Below the pieces are notes generated by a model. It was not told the DNA's origin and made no database searches. It was given only the letters and a program-made list of their open reading frames with translations. Below, one piece after another: positions 10,515 to 39,873 of a stretch of 64,000 nucleotides of DNA. Every line of letters begins with the position of its first letter. The stretch's first letter is position 1. Location: positions 36,299 to 100,298 of the forward strand of contig JBEULG010000028.1 of the NCBI GenBank assembly GCA_041287425.1, given 5' to 3'. This DNA is from Anaerolineales bacterium (lineage in GTDB: Bacteria; Chloroflexota; Anaerolineae; Anaerolineales; Villigracilaceae). The position numbers were made by a program, and so were the translations under genes.

Positions 10515-11822
10515 TCACCTTCCCACCCCCAGCCGGAAGAGGCGAAAACCGGCCGCCTCCCAGGCGGCAGGCGCCCAGACATTGCGCATGTCCACCGCCA
10601 GCCGGGCGGGCGTCAGCCGGGCCAGTTCGGCGGGATCGAGCGCCGCGAATTGGGCATGGTGAACGAGCAAGACGACACACTCGGCCTCCCGGACGGCCTC
10701 CTCCAGGCTGGCGGCGCAAGCGATGCCGGGCAAGCCCTCGGGGCGAAAAGGTTCGAAGGCCCGCACCTGCGCCCCCGCCTCTTGCAGCAAATGGACCACC
10801 TCGGCAGCCGGACTCTCCCGCAAATCGTCCACATCCGGCTTGAAGGCCAGGCCCAGGGCGGCGATCCGTCGCCCGGCCAACGACCCCAGGGCGCGCTCGA
10901 TGAGGCGCAGGGCAAAGTGAGGCTGCGCATCGTTGACCTGCCGGGCCGTGTAAATCAAATCGGCCAAATCGGGTGCGGCCTCGACGAAGAACCACGGGTC
11001 AACGCTGATGCAGTGTCCGCCCACCCCCGGCCCGGGGCTGAGAATCTTGACCCGCGGGTGAAGATTGGCAACCGCAATCGCCTCCCAGACATCCACGCCG
11101 AAACGTTCGGCCAGCCGCGCGAACTCATTGGCAATCGCAATGTTGATGTCGCGATAGGTATTCTCCATCAATTTGACCATCTCGGCGGTGGTCGCGTCGG
11201 TGACGACGATCTGCCCTTTGACGAAGACCGCATACAGGTCGCGCCCCGCCTGACCCGCCGCCGGCGTGACCCCGCCGATGACACGGGCGTTCTCGATCAA
11301 CTCCCGTACGATCTGCCCGGGCAGGACGCGTTCGGGCGAGTAGGCCAGCAGGAAGTCCTGGCCGCCTTTCAGCCCGGATTTCTCCAGCACCGGCTGCACC
11401 AGGTCCACCGTCGTGCGCGGCGGCGAAGTCGATTCAAGCACGACCAGATTGCCCTTTCGCAAGACGGGGACAATCGCCTCGGCAGCCGCCAGGACAGCGC
11501 GCAGGTCGGCTACTTTGTAGCGCTTCCCCGCCCCCTCCCCCAGACGGTCTTCCCGAAACGGGGTCGGGACGGCGATGATGAAGGCGTCGGCTTCGACCGG
11601 CTTGTCGGAAAACGTCAACCGGCCGGAGCGGAGAGCCGCCTCGAAGGTCTCGCGCAGCCCCGGCTCCTGGATATGCAAGTCGCCGCGCCGCAGGGTAGCC
11701 ATCACTTCGGCGTTGACATCCACGCCCACGACTTCGACGCCGTGTGCCGCGAAGGTACTGGCAGTAGGCAGGCCAATATAGCCCAGGCCCAGGACACAAA
11801 TTCGATTGAACTTCACGCGCAC
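10515..11822 (-). CDS. wecC: UDP-N-acetyl-D-mannosamine (nucleotide-sugar) dehydrogenase
   Basis: Rossmann motif ICVLGLGYIGLP and catalytic-Cys region GPGVGGHCISVDP. The track start at 11822 is a GTG. A GTG two codons downstream has better SD spacing, so the start is uncertain by 6 nt. Confidence 0.88.
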   Translation of the reverse strand: MRVKFNRICVLGLGYIGLPTASTFAAHGVEVVGVDVNAEVMATLRRGDLHIQEPGLRETFEAALRSGRLTFSDKPVEADAFIIAVPTPFREDRLGEGAGKRYKVADLRAVLAAAEAIVPVLRKGNLVVLESTSPPRTTVDLVQPVLEKSGLKGGQDFLLAYSPERVLPGQIVRELIENARVIGGVTPAAGQAGRDLYAVFVKGQIVVTDATTAEMVKLMENTYRDINIAIANEFARLAERFGVDVWEAIAVANLHPRVKILSPGPGVGGHCISVDPWFFVEAAPDLADLIYTARQVNDAQPHFALRLIERALGSLAGRRIAALGLAFKPDVDDLRESPAAEVVHLLQEAGAQVRAFEPFRPEGLPGIACAASLEEAVREAECVVLLVHHAQFAALDPAELARLTPARLAVDMRNVWAPAAWEAAGFRLFRLGVGR

Positions 11823-11830
11823 TCCATCTC

Positions 11831-11844
11831 TCGAAAATTTTCGA
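11831..11844. promoter_or_regulatory. Perfect 14-bp palindrome TCGAAAATTTTCGA just upstream of wecC
   Basis: Read directly, 9 nt upstream of the wecC start in the divergent wecC/nfeD spacer. Confidence 0.35.
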
Positions 11845-11991
11845 ACCAGGCCTGCCCGCAGGCAGCCGGAGTCCAGGGCTGGATTCTACCCCAAACCCGC
11901 CCCGGCGTAAAACCAACATCTTCCGATTACGTATGATTAAGAAGTAAAAAACCCCCTCTCATGTTGTATAATAAAAACAGTCGGGAAGGAC

Positions 11992-12606
11992 ATGGGAAAG
12001 ATGGACACATTCCTGCTCAACCCCAACATCGCCTACCTGTTCCTCGTCACCGGCTCGGTGTTGACGCTGCTGGCCATTGTCACACCGGGAACGGGGATTC
12101 TGGAGGTATCGGCGCTCTTCTGCCTGGCCCTGGCTGGCTACGCCCTCTTCAACCTGGGAATCAACCTGTGGGCGCTGATTCTCCTGATTCTCAGCCTGGT
12201 GCCATTCATTTATGCCATCCGAAAGCCGAAACGCGAATGGGCGCTGGCACTGTCCATCCTGGGCTTGATCGTCAGTTCGTTGTACATCTTCCCGCCCTCC
12301 GGCTGGGCGCCGCGCCTCGACCCGCTCTTCGCCATCCTGGGGTCGGTGCTGTCGGGCGGATTCGTGTGGCTGGTCGTCCGCAAGACGCTCCAGGCGCATC
12401 TCGTCCGCCCGGCGCATGACCTGTCCGCGCTGATTGGCCAGATGGGCGAAGCAAAAACCGAGATTCACGAGACCGGCTCGGTCCAGGTCGCCGGCGAACT
12501 CTGGACCGCCCGAAGCAAGAAACCCATCCCGGCCGGCAAAATGGTCCGGGTGACAGGACGCGAAGGCTTCGTCCTGGTAGTCGAACAAGCCGAAAAAGTC
12601 AAATAA
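11992..12606 (+). CDS. NfeD-family membrane protein
   Basis: Four to five hydrophobic segments, then a C-terminal OB-like GSVQVAGELWTARSKKPIPAGKMVRVTGREGFVLVVE. It lies directly upstream of a stomatin gene, the classic NfeD-SPFH pair. Confidence 0.85.
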   Translation: MGKMDTFLLNPNIAYLFLVTGSVLTLLAIVTPGTGILEVSALFCLALAGYALFNLGINLWALILLILSLVPFIYAIRKPKREWALALSILGLIVSSLYIFPPSGWAPRLDPLFAILGSVLSGGFVWLVVRKTLQAHLVRPAHDLSALIGQMGEAKTEIHETGSVQVAGELWTARSKKPIPAGKMVRVTGREGFVLVVEQAEKVK

Positions 12607-21431: not shown

Positions 21432-22661
21432 ATGCCCACCCTCCTCTGGCCGACCAAGTCGAAAGGCATTCCTCCCAGCGCGGCGCTGAACACCGAGGCG
21501 CTCATTTACCCCGGCGGACACGGATACCCTCAACCGCCAGTCAACCGCCTGATTCTGGGCGACAACCTGAACGTCATGGCTGCCCTGTTGCCCGAATACG
21601 AAGGCCGCATCCACCTCATCTACGCCGATCCGCCCTTTTTCACCAACAAACGTTACCCCGCCCGCATCGGGCGCGGCGAAGACTCGCGCCGCCCGCGCGA
21701 ATGGCAACTGGCCGAAGGCTACGCCGATCACTGGAGCGACCTGGACGCCTACCTGGACTTCCTCTATCCGCGCCTCGAACTGATGACGCGCCTGCTCGCC
21801 CCCACCGGCAGCCTCTATCTGCACCTCGACTGGCACGCCGACGCCTATGCCCGCCTCCTGCTCGATGAACTCCTCGGCCGCGAAAACCTGCTCAACGAAA
21901 TCATCTGGGTCTATCACGGCCCCTCGCCCGTCAGACGGGCGTTCAACCGCAAACACGATACCATCCTGGCATATACCAAAAGCAAAGACTACACCTTCAA
22001 CGCCGACGCCGTCCGCGAGCCATACAACCCCAACACGCTCAAAACCTTCGAGGCCTCCCCCAAAGCGGGCTTCGGCAAAGTCCCCAACCTGGAGCGCGGC
22101 AAAGTGCCCGAGGACTGGTGGTATTTTCCGGTCGTGGCCCGCCTGCACTCCGAGCGCACCGGCTACCCGACCCAAAAACCCGAGGCGCTGATCGAACGCA
22201 TCCTGCTGGCCTCCTCCCGCCCCGGCGACCTGGTGGCCGATTTCTTCTGCGGCTCAGGCACCCTCCCCGTCAGCGCCGTCCGCCATGGACGGCGATTCCT
22301 GGCCTGCGATATCGCCTGGCGCGCCGTCCACACCACCCGTCTGCGTCTGCTGGCTCAGGAAACGCCTTTTACCCTCGAGCGCGAGACATCCTGTCCCATC
22401 CCCTCGCTCGAAACAAAAATCCGGCTGGAAATTGCCGGCCGGAAAATCAGCCTCTCTCCAGGGGACATTGAACTGGATTACTGGGAGGTTGACCCCGCCT
22501 GGGATGGCAGCGTCTTCCGCAGCCGCGCCCAAGCCCGCCGCCCAGGCCGGCTGGCCGACATCCCCCTCAGCCTCGACCTGCCGGCCCCGCCCAGCCGGCC
22601 GTGTGTGCAAGCCGTCGCTGTCAGCGGCGAATGGATACGAATCACACCGGGGCAGACCTGA
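21432..22661 (+). CDS. Beta-class DNA methyltransferase (N6-adenine or N4-cytosine) with a ~110-aa C-terminal extension
   Basis: Motif IV IYADPPFF precedes motif I DFFCGSGT. YPTQKPEAL is typical of the Mod/ParB-less N4/N6 methylase family. No nuclease gene is adjacent. Confidence 0.85.
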   Translation: MPTLLWPTKSKGIPPSAALNTEALIYPGGHGYPQPPVNRLILGDNLNVMAALLPEYEGRIHLIYADPPFFTNKRYPARIGRGEDSRRPREWQLAEGYADHWSDLDAYLDFLYPRLELMTRLLAPTGSLYLHLDWHADAYARLLLDELLGRENLLNEIIWVYHGPSPVRRAFNRKHDTILAYTKSKDYTFNADAVREPYNPNTLKTFEASPKAGFGKVPNLERGKVPEDWWYFPVVARLHSERTGYPTQKPEALIERILLASSRPGDLVADFFCGSGTLPVSAVRHGRRFLACDIAWRAVHTTRLRLLAQETPFTLERETSCPIPSLETKIRLEIAGRKISLSPGDIELDYWEVDPAWDGSVFRSRAQARRPGRLADIPLSLDLPAPPSRPCVQAVAVSGEWIRITPGQT

Positions 22662-32616: not shown

Positions 32617-33102
32617 ATGGAAACCCTGGAAGCCATCCGCAAGCGGCGCAGCATCCGCAAATACAAACCCGACCCGATTCCGCGCCAGCACCTGGAGACC
32701 ATCGTCGACGCCGGGCGGCTGGCGGCCACCGGCAGCAACCGTCAGCCGTGGGATTTCATCGTCGTCCAGGAACGGGCGACCATCGCCCGATTCAAATCGG
32801 CCGGCGGGTGGATCGAATCGGCGCCGGCCGTCATCGCGGTGGTGCTCGACCCGTCCTCGCGCTGGTGGGTGGAGGACGGCGCGGCCGCCATCGAGAACAT
32901 GCTGCTGGCCTGCACCGCCCTGGGCTATGGTTCCTGCTGGGTGGAAGGCGATGCCCTGCCGCGCGAAGAGGAGTTCAAGCGCCTGCTGGGAGTGCCGCCC
33001 GAAAAGCGCCTGATGGCGCTGGTGCCGGTCGGCGTGCCAGACGAAAGCCCGACGCGGGAAAAGAAACCTCTCGAGCAGGTGATTCACTGGGAGAAGTATT
33101 GA
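32617..33102 (+). CDS. Nitroreductase-family protein
   Basis: AIRKRRSIRKY..RLAATGSNRQPWDFIVV signature. GAGGAG RBS. Confidence 0.88.
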   Translation: METLEAIRKRRSIRKYKPDPIPRQHLETIVDAGRLAATGSNRQPWDFIVVQERATIARFKSAGGWIESAPAVIAVVLDPSSRWWVEDGAAAIENMLLACTALGYGSCWVEGDALPREEEFKRLLGVPPEKRLMALVPVGVPDESPTREKKPLEQVIHWEKY

Positions 33103-33284
33103 TTAGGTGACAAAAACACAAGGCTCATCTATCCAAAGAGTGAGCGTGGTTGCGAGGGCCGGTGCTCTCCCGGCCCGAAGCAATCCCCCTCGTGGTTTTC
33201 TACGTGCAAAAGACAGGAGACTGCTTCGTCGGGCAAAAGGCGCCCTCCTCGCAGCGACACGGTTTACTTATGTAGGTGTATTCC

Positions 33285-34175
33285 CTATCGGTCGGAGAGT
33301 TGGCAGTCGAGAATTCTCTTCTCTGCCAATTGTACATATTTTTCGTCCACTTCGTAGCCGACGTAATGGCGCCCGGAGCGGAGGGCGGCGAGAGCCGTCT
33401 GCCCGCTGCCCATGAAGGGGTCGAGGACGACCTCGCCAGCAAAAGTATAGAGTTGAATCAACCGCCGCGGCAACTCGACCGGGAACGGCGCCGGGTGCCC
33501 GACCTTGCGCGCCGGTTCGGCGGGAAACGTCCAGACGGACTTGTTGTACTCGAGGAATTCCTGACGGCTAATCGTGCTGGCGCGGCGCTGCGGATTGGCG
33601 CGCTTGAAAGTCTGCTTGCTGAAGACCAGGATGTACTCGTGCACGTCGCGCAGGGTGGGATTGGAGGCCGATTGCCACGACCCCCAGGCGGTGGACGGGG
33701 AGGCGCTGGCGGCCTTGTTCCAGATGATTTCGCCGCGCATCAAAAAGCCCAGGCGGACGGCCTGTTCGGCGACGTAGGCATGCAGGGGGATATACGGCTT
33801 GCGCCCCAGGTTGGCGAGGTTGATGGCCATCCGTCCCCCCGGCACAAGGACGCGCCAGGTCTCCTTCCAGACGCGCTCCAGGAAGGCCAGGTACTCGCCC
33901 AGCGAGAGGTCGGCGTCGTAGTCCTTGCCGACGTTGTAGGGCGGCGAGGTGACCATGAGATGGACGCTGCAATCGGGCAGTTCGGTCATCGTCTCGGCGG
34001 AGCGGCAGAAGATGCGGTCGAGGCAACCGGAGGGGAGGGGGTTCTCGCAGTAGGGGGCGTCCTGCTCCTGCGGCTGGTCGGCGTAGAGGCGGCTGTTGTA
34101 GAACGGCGTCGCGTCGTGTCCGACCCGGCCGGGGGAGCCGAAGGAGGAGGTGGAGGTGGTTTTTCGCTTGGGCAT
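33285..34175 (-). CDS. Beta-class DNA methyltransferase with SPPY motif IV (N4-cytosine type likely)
   Basis: HLMVTSPPYNVGKDY (motif IV) precedes LDPFMGSGQT (motif I). HPAPFPVELP is typical of the N4/N6 methylase family. Confidence 0.88.
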   Translation of the reverse strand: MPKRKTTSTSSFGSPGRVGHDATPFYNSRLYADQPQEQDAPYCENPLPSGCLDRIFCRSAETMTELPDCSVHLMVTSPPYNVGKDYDADLSLGEYLAFLERVWKETWRVLVPGGRMAINLANLGRKPYIPLHAYVAEQAVRLGFLMRGEIIWNKAASASPSTAWGSWQSASNPTLRDVHEYILVFSKQTFKRANPQRRASTISRQEFLEYNKSVWTFPAEPARKVGHPAPFPVELPRRLIQLYTFAGEVVLDPFMGSGQTALAALRSGRHYVGYEVDEKYVQLAEKRILDCQLSDR

Positions 34176-34195
34176 GCTAGTTCATATTTTCATAA

Positions 34196-34272
34196 CACGA
34201 AGGACGCCACGAACCCACGAAGGAACACCAAGATACTTCGTGACCTTTGTGCTAACCTTCGTGCCCTTTGTG
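34196..34272. repeat. Cluster of five CACGAAG/CTTCGTG cores: three forward, two inverted within 16-bp direct repeats
   Basis: CACGAAGGA at 34196 and 34216, CACGAAC at 34208. CTTCGTGaCCTTTGTG at 34236 and CTTCGTGcCCTTTGTG at 34257. This fills the 98-nt spacer between the HAS-barrel-like gene and the methyltransferase. Confidence 0.85.
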
Positions 34273-34273
34273 T

Positions 34274-34867
34274 TTAAACCACCTCCCCCAGCGCGCCCAG
34301 CACGGACATGAGAGTCGGATAATCATCGCGCAAGAGGGTAATCAGTTCCTGGATTGCGGCCTCGACCCATTTTTCGTCCTTCGTCTGCTGCTTCACCTGC
34401 AGGAGATGCGCCGCCAGCACCTCGCCGATGGGCGTCTCCTCCGCCCGCAGCAGGTGACGGAAGTAGCCGAAGCGCCCGGCGGTGACGAAGCGGGTCAGTT
34501 CGGCCGCCGTGCAGAGGTAGATGACATCCAGGCTGAGCGGCGGACGCGGCGGCAGCAGATGATAGATTTTGCCGTCCTGTTCGTAGCCGACCGTCAGCAC
34601 GCTCATCTCGACCGGCACGATGCGCCGCTCGCGGTTGTCGTGCATGACCTCCGGCGTGATGTTGTCGGCGGTGACCAGTTGGCGCACCAGGCCGTCATCC
34701 TCGATGTGGATGTCGGTGATGAGGCCATAGACGGCGTATCCGCCCTCCAGCGGGGCGCGGACGAGCGCGCCCAGGGCGGGGGCTTCCAGTTGCGCCACCG
34801 AGCAGCCGGCCACGAAGCCGGTCGTGCCGGAGCGCAGAAGATGTCCGATGCGGAGGGTGTCTGTCAT
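34274..34867 (-). CDS. Hypothetical 197-aa protein, possible stand-alone HAS-barrel (HerA N-terminal-like) domain plus helical tail
   Basis: Track ORF 34274..35554, but its 5' 229 codons are Arg/Pro-rich and overlap nurA out of frame. Likely start MTDTLRIGHLL (ATG 34865-34867) overlaps the nurA stop as ATGA. IGHLLRSGTTGFVAGCSV...YGLITDIHIEDD is beta-barrel-like. No Walker motifs. Confidence 0.6.
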   Translation of the reverse strand: MTDTLRIGHLLRSGTTGFVAGCSVAQLEAPALGALVRAPLEGGYAVYGLITDIHIEDDGLVRQLVTADNITPEVMHDNRERRIVPVEMSVLTVGYEQDGKIYHLLPPRPPLSLDVIYLCTAAELTRFVTAGRFGYFRHLLRAEETPIGEVLAAHLLQVKQQTKDEKWVEAAIQELITLLRDDYPTLMSVLGALGEVV

Positions 34868-36039
34868 TTTGTTCGCGTCCTTCCCGGCAAATCCTTCGCC
34901 GATTGCTTGCCCGATTTCTCGCCCACCTCGCCGCCGGCGCGGCGCAGTTCGAGGGCGAGCATCGCCTCGACTTGCTGTTTCTCCTCGAATCCGACCACCG
35001 CCACCTCGTGGGCGCGGTGCAGAATGTACGGGTACGGCCGCGCCCCCATGATGCGGCACTGCTCGACGAGGGCGGCGTGCAGGGCGTTCAAACTGGCCTC
35101 GTCCTCGGCCACCCACTTGGGGAATTCGACCCGCGCCAGGGCGGGATGCTTCTCGTCGCCGGCGTTCAGGTAGAAGAAGTGCAGCGCCAGGTCGCCGGTG
35201 TAGTGGAGGCGCGAACTGGACTGGAGACCGAAGACGGCAGAGCGCTGACCGCCCCGCAGCAGGCGGCCGAAGAGCCACAAGTCGGTGACGCCGCGCAGGG
35301 GATGGCGCTGGCGCACGTCTTTCAATTCGTCTTCCGGCAGGGCGGCAATTTCCAGCAAGCGGATGACCAGGTCGGCGGCGGGCTTGTCCACGTAACCGGC
35401 GGGCAGAATGCCCCGTTCCTGCATCTGGGAGAGAATCGACTTGTGCATTTCGAGATGGCGGCGGTACTCTTCCTGGCCGCCGTCTTTGGCCCCCCACAGT
35501 TCCACCGGCCCATCGGTCAACGCCAGGCACGGACCTTCGCCCTGCCGCGCCCATTCGAGCAGTTTGCGCCGTTCGGCCAGGTCGCGGCGCAGGGCGAGGG
35601 CCTCCTCGGTCAGCACGCCGCTCTCGGTGTACATCTCCTCGTCGAACAGGAGATTGCTCTCGGTGACGACCTCGGGGGCCGCGCCGGAGCCGGGGCGGAG
35701 GGCGATGACCGCCACATTGACCAGGCTGTAGAGGACGGCCGCGTGCCGGTCGGGGGCGATCTGCGAGCCGTCGGCGGCGAGGAGGGTCGGGGTAACGGGA
35801 GCAGGCGCGGGGTCGAAGGCCGAAGCGAGCGGCGCCCCGAGGGGGAGGGCGCAGCGCAGGGTGGGGTCATGGCCTCGGGCGCGTTCGACTTTTTCGGCCA
35901 GGAGCGCCGCTTTGTCCTGCCAGGCCTGGAAGAGGTCCCAGGCGCGCTGGCGCTGACGCTCCAGGTTTTGGCGGCGCGCCTGCGCTCCCTGGCCGATGAG
36001 GCGGATTTTTTCATAGACTTGCTGGAAGTTGAGGGCCAT
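34864..36039 (-). CDS. nurA: NurA-domain 5'-3' nuclease
   Basis: LLAADGSQI (catalytic Asp region), LTDGPVELWG, and RVEFPKWV...YPYILHRAHEVAVV match NurA-family conserved blocks by eye. Confidence 0.75.
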   Translation of the reverse strand: MALNFQQVYEKIRLIGQGAQARRQNLERQRQRAWDLFQAWQDKAALLAEKVERARGHDPTLRCALPLGAPLASAFDPAPAPVTPTLLAADGSQIAPDRHAAVLYSLVNVAVIALRPGSGAAPEVVTESNLLFDEEMYTESGVLTEEALALRRDLAERRKLLEWARQGEGPCLALTDGPVELWGAKDGGQEEYRRHLEMHKSILSQMQERGILPAGYVDKPAADLVIRLLEIAALPEDELKDVRQRHPLRGVTDLWLFGRLLRGGQRSAVFGLQSSSRLHYTGDLALHFFYLNAGDEKHPALARVEFPKWVAEDEASLNALHAALVEQCRIMGARPYPYILHRAHEVAVVGFEEKQQVEAMLALELRRAGGEVGEKSGKQSAKDLPGRTRTK

Positions 36040-36066
36040 GACCGTTCCTTAGAACATTTGTATCGG

Positions 36067-36095
36067 ATTGTACAGGGATTTGGGGTAAAATACAA
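36067..36095 (-). promoter_or_regulatory. Promoter TTGTAT-17-TACAAT for nurA
   Basis: Minus-strand read. The -10 lies 28 nt upstream of the nurA ATG, with an AAGGA RBS between. Confidence 0.5.
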
Positions 36096-36179
36096 GGCGT
36101 GAGGGGAACTTTTTCATGCCTGACGGCGTCTGTTTCCCATTCGTTCATATCCGACATTCATATCCAAAAGGAGGTTTGT

Positions 36180-36902
36180 ATGCGTTCTAAATTGTTCTGG
36201 CTTGCGCCGGTTTTAGCCCTGGCCCTGATTCTGACGGCCTGCAGTTCCCGGCCGTCTTCCGAGCAGGCGGCGCCGCGCACTCTCAACGTGACCGGCGTCG
36301 GCACCGTCTATCTGAGCCCCGACATCGCCTATCTTTATATGGGCGTGCATACAGAGGACGCCGACATTTCTGCGGCGGTGGATGAAAACAACCGCCAGAC
36401 CCAGGCAGTGGTGAATGCCCTCACCGCGATGGGCATTGCAGCCAGCGACATCCAGACCAGCAATTTCTCGGTCTGGGGGTCGCAGCAGTACGATCCGGTG
36501 ACGGGGACGCAGGCCGGTATCATCTATATGGTAGACAACACCGTCTATGTGACCGTCCGCGACCTGGACAAACTGCCCGATGTGCTGGATGCCGCCATCT
36601 CGGCCGGGGCGAACAACATCAACAGTCTGCAGTTCGACGTGGCCGATAAATCTGCCGCCCTGCAGGAAGCCCGTCAACTGGCGATGGAAAACGCCAACCG
36701 GCTGGCGGCCGAACTGGCCGACAACGCCGGACTGGAACTGGGCGAGATTCAGACGCTCTCCTACAGCGACTCGCTGCCGGTTTCGTATGGCTATGGATAC
36801 GGCATGGGCGGAGGCGGAGGCGAGGGGGGCGCAGCGACGCCCATCAGTCCCGGCCAATTGCCGTTGACCGTCTATTTGACCATCACCTACGAGATTCGCT
36901 GA
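36180..36902 (+). CDS. SIMPL-domain (DUF541) lipoprotein, copy 1
   Basis: Part of ORF 36099..36902. Start MRSKLFWLAPVLALALILTAC (lipobox). SIMPL-like LNVTGVGTVYLSPDIAYLYMGV. Confidence 0.85.
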   Translation: MRSKLFWLAPVLALALILTACSSRPSSEQAAPRTLNVTGVGTVYLSPDIAYLYMGVHTEDADISAAVDENNRQTQAVVNALTAMGIAASDIQTSNFSVWGSQQYDPVTGTQAGIIYMVDNTVYVTVRDLDKLPDVLDAAISAGANNINSLQFDVADKSAALQEARQLAMENANRLAAELADNAGLELGEIQTLSYSDSLPVSYGYGYGMGGGGGEGGAATPISPGQLPLTVYLTITYEIR

Positions 36903-39124: not shown

Positions 39125-39802
39125 TCACTTTGCGCCGCTCTGCTCCACCTTGCGGATGACCATCACCACTTTGCCTTTGATTTCCAAAGGTTCCTCCTTG
39201 CTGATGATGATGGGCTGCATAGTCGGATTGGCCGGCTGGAGGCGGTAATGGTCGCCTTCTTTGAAGAAGTATTTCAGCGTCGTCTCGTCGCGGTGAGGCA
39301 GCCAAATGGCGACCATCTCACCATTGTTGGCGTTGGCTGCCCGCTTCATGATGACGATGTCGCCGTCGTTGATCATGGCGTCAATCATCGAATCGCCTTG
39401 AACTCTCAGGGCGTATAAATCGTCCTCTTTTTCGCGGCTTGGGATGACGCTGCGGGCGATGTCCACGGCGTCGAGGTCCTCTCCTACATAGGTGGGGCCG
39501 GCATCGGGGACCAGGATGGGCAAGCCGGCGGCAATGGGGCCTAAAATGGGAATCCGCACCAGTTCCTGGGCGGGGAGCGGACCGGGCAGCCGCAGGGCGC
39601 GCGAGTAACGGGCATCCCGTTCAATTAGCCCCAGGTCGGCCAGTTGCTTGAGGTAGTAAGTGACCACCGAGGTGGACGAGATGCCGGTCGCCTGACCAAT
39701 TTCGCGGATGGATGGCGGGTAGCCCTGTTCGCGCAGCCGTTTGTTGATGTAATCGAGGATTTTCTGGTGTCGTTCGGTCAGACCTTTGCGAGTGCGGACC
39801 AT
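39125..39802 (-). CDS. lexA: LexA repressor
   Basis: LTERHQKILDYI..GYPPSIREIG wHTH. Cleavage and S24 peptidase region VQGDSMIDA..DGDIVIM..NGEMVA. Confidence 0.93.
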   Translation of the reverse strand: MVRTRKGLTERHQKILDYINKRLREQGYPPSIREIGQATGISSTSVVTYYLKQLADLGLIERDARYSRALRLPGPLPAQELVRIPILGPIAAGLPILVPDAGPTYVGEDLDAVDIARSVIPSREKEDDLYALRVQGDSMIDAMINDGDIVIMKRAANANNGEMVAIWLPHRDETTLKYFFKEGDHYRLQPANPTMQPIIISKEEPLEIKGKVVMVIRKVEQSGAK

Positions 39803-39843: not shown

Positions 39844-39873
39844 ATCATAACACGAACATACGTTCTGTGTCAA
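39844..39873 (-). promoter_or_regulatory. lexA promoter TTGACA-18-TATGAT with an embedded SOS box CGAACATACGTTCT (39853-39866)
   Basis: Read directly. The GAAC-N4-GTTC palindrome matches the Gram-positive/Chloroflexi-type LexA box and sits in the promoter spacer. Confidence 0.7.

Follow-up and report, generated by a model that had tools for sequence, protein, structure and literature searches.

A stretch of 64,000 nucleotides (nt) from an Anaerolineales bacterium (assembly GCA_041287425.1, contig JBEULG010000028.1, positions 36,299-100,298 of the forward strand), hereafter the window and numbered throughout with position 1 at its first letter, carries on its minus strand a run of three genes: nurA for a NurA-family nuclease, a small gene for a 197-aa HAS-barrel-like protein, and a gene for a beta-class DNA methylase with the motif SPPY (Table 1). 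An earlier note, made from the sequence alone, had described this run as a possible nuclease/methylase module whose HAS-barrel-like protein is ATPase-less. Its account of the locus itself is borne out by the list of open reading frames (ORFs) and by sequence reading: the three minus-strand ORFs lie where it placed them, the TGA of nurA overlaps the ATG of the small gene as ATGA (34864-34867), a TTGTAT-17-TACAAT promoter precedes nurA, a 98-nt spacer filled with CACRAAGG/CCTTYGTG repeats separates the small gene from the methylase, and no HerA is found in the window (zero tblastn matches with two HerA proteins). The small gene is translationally coupled to nurA. The comparison with related genomes favours, with moderate confidence, the reading that the window holds the front part of an Anaerolineae/Chloroflexota-specific version of the NurA–HerA DNA-end-processing machine.

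NurA, a HAS-barrel-only protein and HerA in related genomes

Relatives of the locus were collected by a scan of one genome per GTDB species, which gave 57 loci, and by individual homologue look-ups, for a total of about 60. Nearly all of the scanned loci are labelled Anaerolineae/Chloroflexota, and one contig is labelled Syntrophothermus; the latter (L042, JBLNAU010000562.1) is a 4.3-kb contig with a typical Anaerolineales nurA–small gene pair, binned in a metagenome-assembled genome of Syntrophothermus sp., and is probably mis-binned. Mapping by tblastn reveals a recurring order of nurA, small gene, variable stretch and herA. NurA is encoded upstream of the small gene in 51 of the 53 non-redundant loci with enough sequence, and HerA downstream in 33 of the 34 that have at least 6 kb downstream, at a distance of 0.07-5.7 kb in almost all relatives. 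These HerA proteins are full-length (DUF87/HerA_C), mostly 560-580 aa long, and have their own N-terminal barrel and Walker A/B motifs (Walker A in the representative L003: GATGTGKS); their mean pairwise identity across the related loci is 0.84.

A 561-aa protein on record, P0272 (MEZ0396492.1, 'ATP-binding protein [Anaerolineales bacterium]'), is 93% identical to the HerA of the nearest relative, L005, with Walker A (GATGTGKS) and Walker B intact. It is recorded on a single contig of 119,922 bp, and the NurA, small protein and methylase of the window are likewise recorded on a single contig of 119,922 bp. The herA gene of this genome most probably lies outside the window, elsewhere on the same 119.9-kb contig and at least 28 kb from nurA. 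The term 'ATPase-less' does not survive the full-length HerA that follows in 33 of 34 relatives and the intact P0272, and the idea of an ATPase-less nuclease/methylase module arises for the most part from where the window ends and from a local rearrangement.

The order is not invariable. In L065 and L066, whose small protein is 84% identical, nurA and the small gene are followed by gyrA, with no herA within 10 kb, and L063 has small gene, methylase and herA without nurA; these arrangements indicate that the cluster is breakable and that the small gene stays with either partner. More distant homologues of the small protein (28% identity) are encoded next to NurA in L067 and next to HerA in L068 and L069. 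Because even members this divergent still adjoin one or the other, the small protein is a dedicated companion of this NurA–HerA lineage. The junction between nurA and the small gene is ATGA or a zero gap in the window and in L006, L014, L015, L016, L020 and L060. Some variants of these arrangements can be recorded here: a GNAT/YoaP-like acetyltransferase gene lies between nurA and the small gene in L004 (7236-7988; L017 is the same contig), breaking the coupling; a gap of about 780-1000 nt separates the two genes also in L022, L023, L025, L052, L056, L058 and L059; and the herA beside the distant small-protein homologue in L068 (2467-6732) is split by a group II intron ORF (RVT_1, GIIM, HNH).

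The nuclease of the window belongs to the NurA family by its match to the Pfam model PF09376 (102.5 bits, with a cutoff of 21; the match spans positions 2-254 of the 254 in the model). Seven residues, D90 (in DGS), D153, E156, D176, E180, H344 and E345, show a conservation of 98% or more across 53 orthologues and are taken to be of catalytic type by analogy rather than by structural alignment. Neither the single sequence nor a five-sequence profile matched a NurA structure in the PDB. Mean pairwise identity of NurA across the related loci is 0.69.

For the 197-aa protein, sequence searches against PDB, Pfam, NCBIfam and PADLOC gave nothing significant; its Pfam matches are all sub-threshold, including the HAS-barrel model PF09378 (13.3 bits, below the cutoff of 25.2, E=0.091). 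An AlphaFold2 model built from an alignment of 70 diverse members is confident (predicted local distance difference test score 94.7, predicted template modelling score 0.89) and shows an N-terminal beta-barrel (residues ~5-118) that includes a helical insert and, after it, a C-terminal helical bundle (121-196). When this model was compared with the PDB by Foldseek, the 50 best matches were HerA chains throughout (E 1e-5 to 1e-3, 116-153 aligned columns, template modelling score on the query 0.39-0.51), drawn from DUF4297–HerA, TdpA of TdpAB, the Thermococcus kodakarensis HerA–NurA complex, SIR2–HerA, Sulfolobus HerA and Deinococcus radiodurans HerA, with the highest identity among these best matches, 19-22%, in the TdpA chains. 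From the hhalign and Pfam alignments, the match would lie on the HerA N-terminus. A viral fold library gave no match to the model at E<=0.001. The guess of a HAS barrel without Walker A/B motifs is thus correct: no match to the DUF87/HerA ATPase domain exists and the model consists of barrel and helical bundle alone, so that the protein is HerA-like in its barrel but not a HerA. The earlier description of this partner as uncharacterised also agrees with the absence of a significant family in Pfam, NCBIfam and PADLOC, and literature searches turned up neither a HAS-barrel-only partner nor a NurA–HerA operon described for Chloroflexi.

The family is large. It comprises 5740 clusters at 90% identity, the best 120 of which share 66-88% identity with the query at a length of about 197 aa, their named members all being 'hypothetical protein' of Anaerolineales/Chloroflexota; at 50% identity, 433 representatives can be found among 1.84 billion proteins, and the full-length ones are nearly all about 200 aa. 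Near-invariant positions in the alignment of 70 diverse members are G8, G33, G48, G94, an LPPxPP loop and F127. Mean pairwise identity (0.79) exceeds that of NurA. The profile of the family aligns only weakly with that of the cognate HerA family, at the N-terminus (hhalign P ~1e-3, 52 columns), and because of this weak alignment the small gene is better seen as an old paralogue than as a recent fragment; an origin by recent duplication of the 5' end of the cognate herA was rejected on the same evidence.

The methylase and the variable zone before herA

The methylase matches the PADLOC model MTase_II (PDLC03350) over its full length (9e-130) and has, besides motif IV SPPY, which is present in 29 of 29 orthologues, motif I DPFMGSG. 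The earlier call of a beta-class enzyme is correct. Its best PDB relative is 2zie, a 'putative modification methylase' (1.4e-40), and the cytosine-N4 methylases 8s9n and 8s9m also match. As a general rule, SPPY would point to N4-cytosine rather than N6-adenine methylation. Its neighbours in the window are the small gene and a nitroreductase gene, and in relatives PDDEXK_3 'GxxExxY' mini-genes, a UDG-superfamily gene, a small-molecule-type S-adenosylmethionine (SAM) methyltransferase gene and herA. Among these window neighbours and the neighbouring genes in relatives, no cognate restriction endonuclease is consistently paired with it. The enzyme is probably an orphan methylase of the N4-cytosine type. 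A homology search returned the same orthologous group alone, at least 76% identical, and did not inform on its origin.

Its distribution is more restricted than that of the other three genes, being present in 23 of 41 non-redundant loci; in 21 of 27 loci that have it, 18-183 nt separate the small gene from its start. A neighbour-joining tree of NurA and the small protein places all methylase-bearing loci in one clade, and every locus outside this clade is without methylase. Exceptions inside the clade are confined to contig ends, a disrupted copy (L019), a copy split by an intein (L020) and a loss (L065/L066). Pairwise identities of the methylase (mean 0.80) correlate with those of NurA (r=0.79) and of the small protein (r=0.61). 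The gene entered the variable zone, which lies between small gene and herA, a single time, and its descent since has been vertical and strongly constrained; it is an orphan and not a universal part of the system. Linkage of the methylase to the NurA/small protein pair in many genomes had been anticipated by the earlier note, and the 23 loci support it. Two findings named there as speaking against its module, a herA encoded elsewhere and a methylase unlinked to the pair in other genomes, are both encountered in part: the former through P0272, whose position is inferred, and the latter only outside the one clade.

In L020, the methylase gene (10654-12576) is interrupted in frame, directly after SPPYNVGK, by a segment of about 340 aa that begins with Cys and matches LAGLIDADG_3 (E=1.7e-8); the segment is most likely an intein with a homing endonuclease in a DNA methyltransferase. 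The window also encodes a second beta-class DNA methyltransferase at 21432-22661 on the plus strand (409 aa, PF01555 E=4e-49, motif DPPF), which adjoins an L,D-transpeptidase gene and a response-regulator gene, with no obvious endonuclease beside it.

The stretch from small gene to herA is a variable cargo zone in the related loci (examples in Table 1). Across loci, its content includes the DNA methylase (27), PDDEXK_3/GxxExxY mini-genes (19), the UDG-superfamily gene (12), four-helix-bundle-like short ORFs (8; a Pfam search with one of them gave no match), a metallophosphoesterase (6) and a SAM methyltransferase (5), together with membrane proteins, a Fic protein and, judged by appearance, a probable transposase gene and a sensor/signalling-like ORF of about 870 aa.

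The spacer between small gene and methylase folds into a nested hairpin (free energy -36.6 kcal/mol, z=-2.8) and contains five of the eight CACRAAGG/CCTTYGTG octamers of the window. The same octamers recur in closer relatives of the window, where tandem or inverted arrays of them occupy the operon's intergenic spacers and flank inserted mini-genes such as PDDEXK_3; a cluster of at least three octamers outside the operon occurs in one case (L027). They are possibly cassette borders, RNA processing sites or regulator sites. Rfam gave no match in 33000-36400, and an integron attC-like identity of the spacer hairpins was dropped, with no attC consensus core visible and no adjacent integrase (no formal test was made).

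Table 1. Features of the nurA operon in the window, with octamer arrays and cargo zones of related loci
Feature	Sequence	Position	Strand	Description
nurA	window	34864-36039	minus	391 aa, NurA-family nuclease; PF09376 E=3.4e-29
Small gene	window	34274-34867	minus	197 aa, HAS-barrel-only protein (predicted), no P-loop; ATGA overlap with nurA
Spacer, 98 nt	window	34176-34273	minus	CACRAAGG / CCTTYGTG units, nested hairpin
SPPY DNA methylase	window	33285-34175	minus	296 aa, beta-class N4/N6; PF01555 E=8.6e-46
nurA promoter -35, TTGTAT	window	36090-36095	minus	read in sequence; within CTTGTATTTT block conserved in relatives
nurA promoter -10, TACAAT	window	36067-36072	minus	17 nt after -35; supported by conservation across relatives
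Operator-like motif ATACAAATGTTCT	window	36051-36063	minus	candidate LexA/SOS box; family consensus (G/A)(T/A)ACAWWTGTTCTA
Octamer array	L001	9525-10018		
Octamer array	L005	10584-16256		
Octamer array	L008	6154-7691		
Octamer array	L037	5304-5942		
Octamer array	L062	7532-9112		
Octamer array	L063	11519-11859		
Cargo zone	L001	8655-10050		
Cargo zone	L004	8656-11037		
Cargo zone	L005	10580-16288		
Cargo zone	L036	4377-5822		
Cargo zone	L053	10615-12006		

A conserved promoter with an operator-like motif

Both the -35 and the -10 region of the promoter recur upstream of nurA in 41 distinct sequences of relatives, the -35 as part of the block CTTGTATTTT; a generic promoter/terminator scan listed neither this promoter nor a terminator in the spacer. 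Directly after the -10 follows an operator-like motif whose core, ACAWWTGTTCT, occurs only once in the window. In 929 kb of loci the core has 61 matches. The 150 nt upstream of nurA account for 44 of these, and no match lies upstream of the small gene, the methylase or herA. Compared with the Cheo-type LexA box (GAAC-N4-GTTC), its right arm is invariant and its left arm is off by one or two bases. The sole perfect GAAC-N4-GTTC of the window (39854-39865) lies in the promoter of lexA, between TTGACA and TATGAT; lexA itself (39125-39802, minus strand; LexA_DNA_bind and Peptidase_S24) is 3 kb from nurA. The motif is a candidate site for LexA and, because it resembles a LexA box, the operon is probably induced by DNA damage. 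A further block, AAAGTTCCC, is present at 36101-36115, and about one third of the relatives' sequences have it some 10-20 nt upstream of the nurA -35 element; it may represent an UP element or else another half-site, with GTTC in it, for a regulator.

Function of the operon: end processing or defence

Several known systems share parts with this operon. Like the bacterial NurA–HerA of the D. radiodurans type (PMC9960219), it has, in the related loci, one cluster that encodes both a nuclease with NurA domain and a HerA/DUF87 ATPase bearing a HAS barrel and Walker A/B, but it differs in the extra conserved HAS-barrel-only gene between nurA and herA, in the variable cargo zone before herA, occupied here by the methylase, and in the non-adjacent herA of this genome. 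By sequence, the HerA of L001 matched SIR2-associated HerA and that of Sulfolobus, and the D. radiodurans protein fell short of E<=0.001. With the archaeal HerA–NurA of Sulfolobus and Thermococcus (4d2i, 9x1l/9x1m) it shares the small-protein fold, which matches the N-terminal part of HerA, and conserved catalytic-type residues of NurA, while no mre11/rad50 is linked to it in the loci examined. We know of no archaeal HerA–NurA operon with a third subunit or a methylase. TdpABC (8wfd, 8wet; PMC12914056) likewise encodes a HerA-like ATPase and a partner with a single DNA-modification gene, but the modification gene is here a SAM-dependent base methylase, missing from many orthologous operons and without defence-island context, and neither the gene calls in the window region nor the annotations of related loci include a TdpC-type phosphorothioate modification gene. 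SIR2–HerA and DUF4297–HerA also have a HerA with HAS barrel, and their HerA chains are among the best Foldseek matches; no SIR2 or DUF4297 effector is encoded here, and PADLOC has no match for NurA or the small protein. Finally, the methylase resembles CcrM-like orphan and Type II enzymes (2zie, M.PvuII, M.RsrI) in its PF01555 fold, its SPPY/DPFMGSG motifs and the lack of an adjacent endonuclease, and is distinguished from them by its place inside a NurA–HerA operon with which it is vertically inherited. The system is thus not TdpABC (no TdpC), not SIR2–HerA or DUF4297–HerA, and not a Type II restriction–modification system (no endonuclease). By its NurA and HerA components it belongs to the bacterial/archaeal NurA–HerA kind. 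New with respect to known NurA–HerA are a third subunit without Pfam, NCBIfam or PADLOC family, an in-operon cargo zone and a clade-specific orphan methylase.

Taken as a whole, the operon reads, somewhat more probably than otherwise, as a NurA–HerA machine for end processing that is inducible by damage, with a HAS-barrel protein as accessory subunit and an orphan methylase encoded within. In solved complexes, a NurA dimer docks on the ring of HAS barrels of HerA, which feeds double-stranded DNA to it (PMC9960219, PMC12977600); the HAS barrel is the docking surface in both the D. radiodurans (PMC9960219) and the T. kodakarensis complex (PMC12977600). The conserved promoter, with its operator-like motif, drives nurA. 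Under this model, NurA, with its conserved acidic and histidine residues intact, would be a nuclease working with a hexameric HerA translocase, whose gene has been displaced in this genome, most probably to another part of the contig. The 197-aa protein would be a stand-alone copy of the HerA N-terminal HAS barrel with a helical bundle, and would serve as an additional subunit without catalytic function, the third of the machine, which contacts NurA, HerA or both as an assembly adaptor or regulator; such a role is proposed because the HerA barrel is the docking surface of NurA. Made in step with NurA, it may bind the NurA surface that recognises HAS barrels, either alone or stacked on HerA, and possibly holds NurA until it is loaded on HerA, as a gatekeeper. 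Induction by damage through the LexA-like operator would fit a role in repair or recombination. The methylase would be co-transcribed with nurA and mechanistically separable, and would not be mechanistically required by nurA, because sister clades run the same operon without it.

A number of observations weigh against this interpretation. The methylase equals the core genes in conservation and remains beside the small gene through two different rearrangements (window, L063), a conservation and adjacency that could reflect a functional tie rather than hitch-hiking. The placement of P0272 on the contig of the window is based on the matching size of 119,922 bp and not on sequence, the left arm of the operator departs from GAAC by one or two bases, LexA binding being predicted, and the partner and role of the small protein are deduced from homology and gene order. 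A HAS barrel is already part of the cognate HerA, so that no need for a second one is evident. Canonical HerA–NurA, moreover, cuts both strands in vitro, and a role in the destruction of foreign DNA has been proposed for it (PMC12977600).

Defence is one alternative, in the form of a methylation-guided, restriction-like system where NurA, HerA and the small protein degrade DNA that lacks the mark of the SPPY methylase. Its appeal lies in the methylase, which is part of the operon in 23 of 41 loci, mostly at 18-183 nt from the end of the small gene, equals the core genes in conservation and has no cognate restriction enzyme beside it, and in the TdpA chains among the best structural matches of the small protein, with the highest identity. 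TdpABC provides a precedent of a HerA-like protein and partner with one modification gene: there tdpC alone is needed for modification, with the HerA-like TdpA and its partner TdpB beside it (PMC12914056). HerA-based defence systems exist, and HerA–NurA itself has been proposed to act on foreign DNA (PMC12977600). Against it, 18 of 41 loci, including whole sister clades, keep nurA, small gene and herA without a DNA methylase, and L065/L066 have lost it. PADLOC-DB v2 has no family for NurA or the small protein, the methylase alone matching, to generic MTase models. The flanking genes (two SIMPL, Era, YhhN, YitT, a dehydrogenase and gyrA, with lexA in the window) are syntenic between species whose NurA is 66% identical, and such a conserved housekeeping context, vertical inheritance and very high identity are atypical of defence islands; the promoter, in addition, carries an SOS-like operator. 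In general, the contacts that NurA and HerA make with DNA are not sequence-specific, and for this reason no reader of base methylation is evident. A defence role is unlikely because of the missing PADLOC matches, the housekeeping syntenic flanks, the high conservation, the vertical inheritance and the SOS-like operator. We also regard as improbable the narrower version in which nurA, the HAS-barrel protein, the m4C-type methylase and herA form a restriction–modification-like system in the methylase clade, with methylation licensing or blocking the nuclease-translocase and the barrel protein coupling or sensing it. The earlier note had proposed either a minimal resection module or a restriction-like defence module; the resection part is retained as the likelier, with HerA rather than without an ATPase, and the defence part finds little support.

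The small protein itself could be placed differently within an end-processing machine, as a HerA-side factor (an extra hexamer ring, an assembly chaperone or a DNA-end clamp) and not a NurA adaptor. It travels with herA without nurA in L063 and L068/L069, HAS-like beta-barrels are described as DNA-binding modules in other proteins (PMC12839542), and its isoelectric point (5.1) is close to that of the HerA N-terminal region (5.3), a similar acidity that is also compatible, as weak evidence, with the adaptor role. We nonetheless consider this placement rather doubtful: the small gene overlaps or abuts nurA in most loci and stays with it when herA is displaced (window, L065). Far less credible still is that the ORF is what decay has left of a truncated or split herA, without function of its own, as its HerA N-terminal fold without ATPase, and its position where herA could once have started, might suggest. 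Its clusters of about 200 aa, many of them 77-88% identical, its several hundred representatives at 50% identity and its conservation above that of NurA led to the rejection of a pseudogene or HerA-fragment reading. Three further observations point the same way: the confidently predicted fold includes a separate C-terminal helical domain, 33 of 34 loci encode a complete, barrel-bearing HerA alongside the small protein, and the profile similarity to the cognate HerA N-terminus is too weak for a recent fragment.

NurA–HerA is regarded as a two-protein machine, known mainly from archaea and Deinococcus-Thermus. If the interpretation as an end-processing machine is correct, a third subunit, strongly conserved, is maintained across a whole bacterial class and would be a free copy of the very domain on which NurA docks, and this subunit may provide a handle on the gating of NurA activity and on its assembly on HerA. 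Whether canonical HerA–NurA is used for repair or against foreign DNA is still debated (PMC12977600), and a vertically inherited methylase within the operon would offer a natural test of whether NurA–HerA serves repair, foreign-DNA destruction or both.

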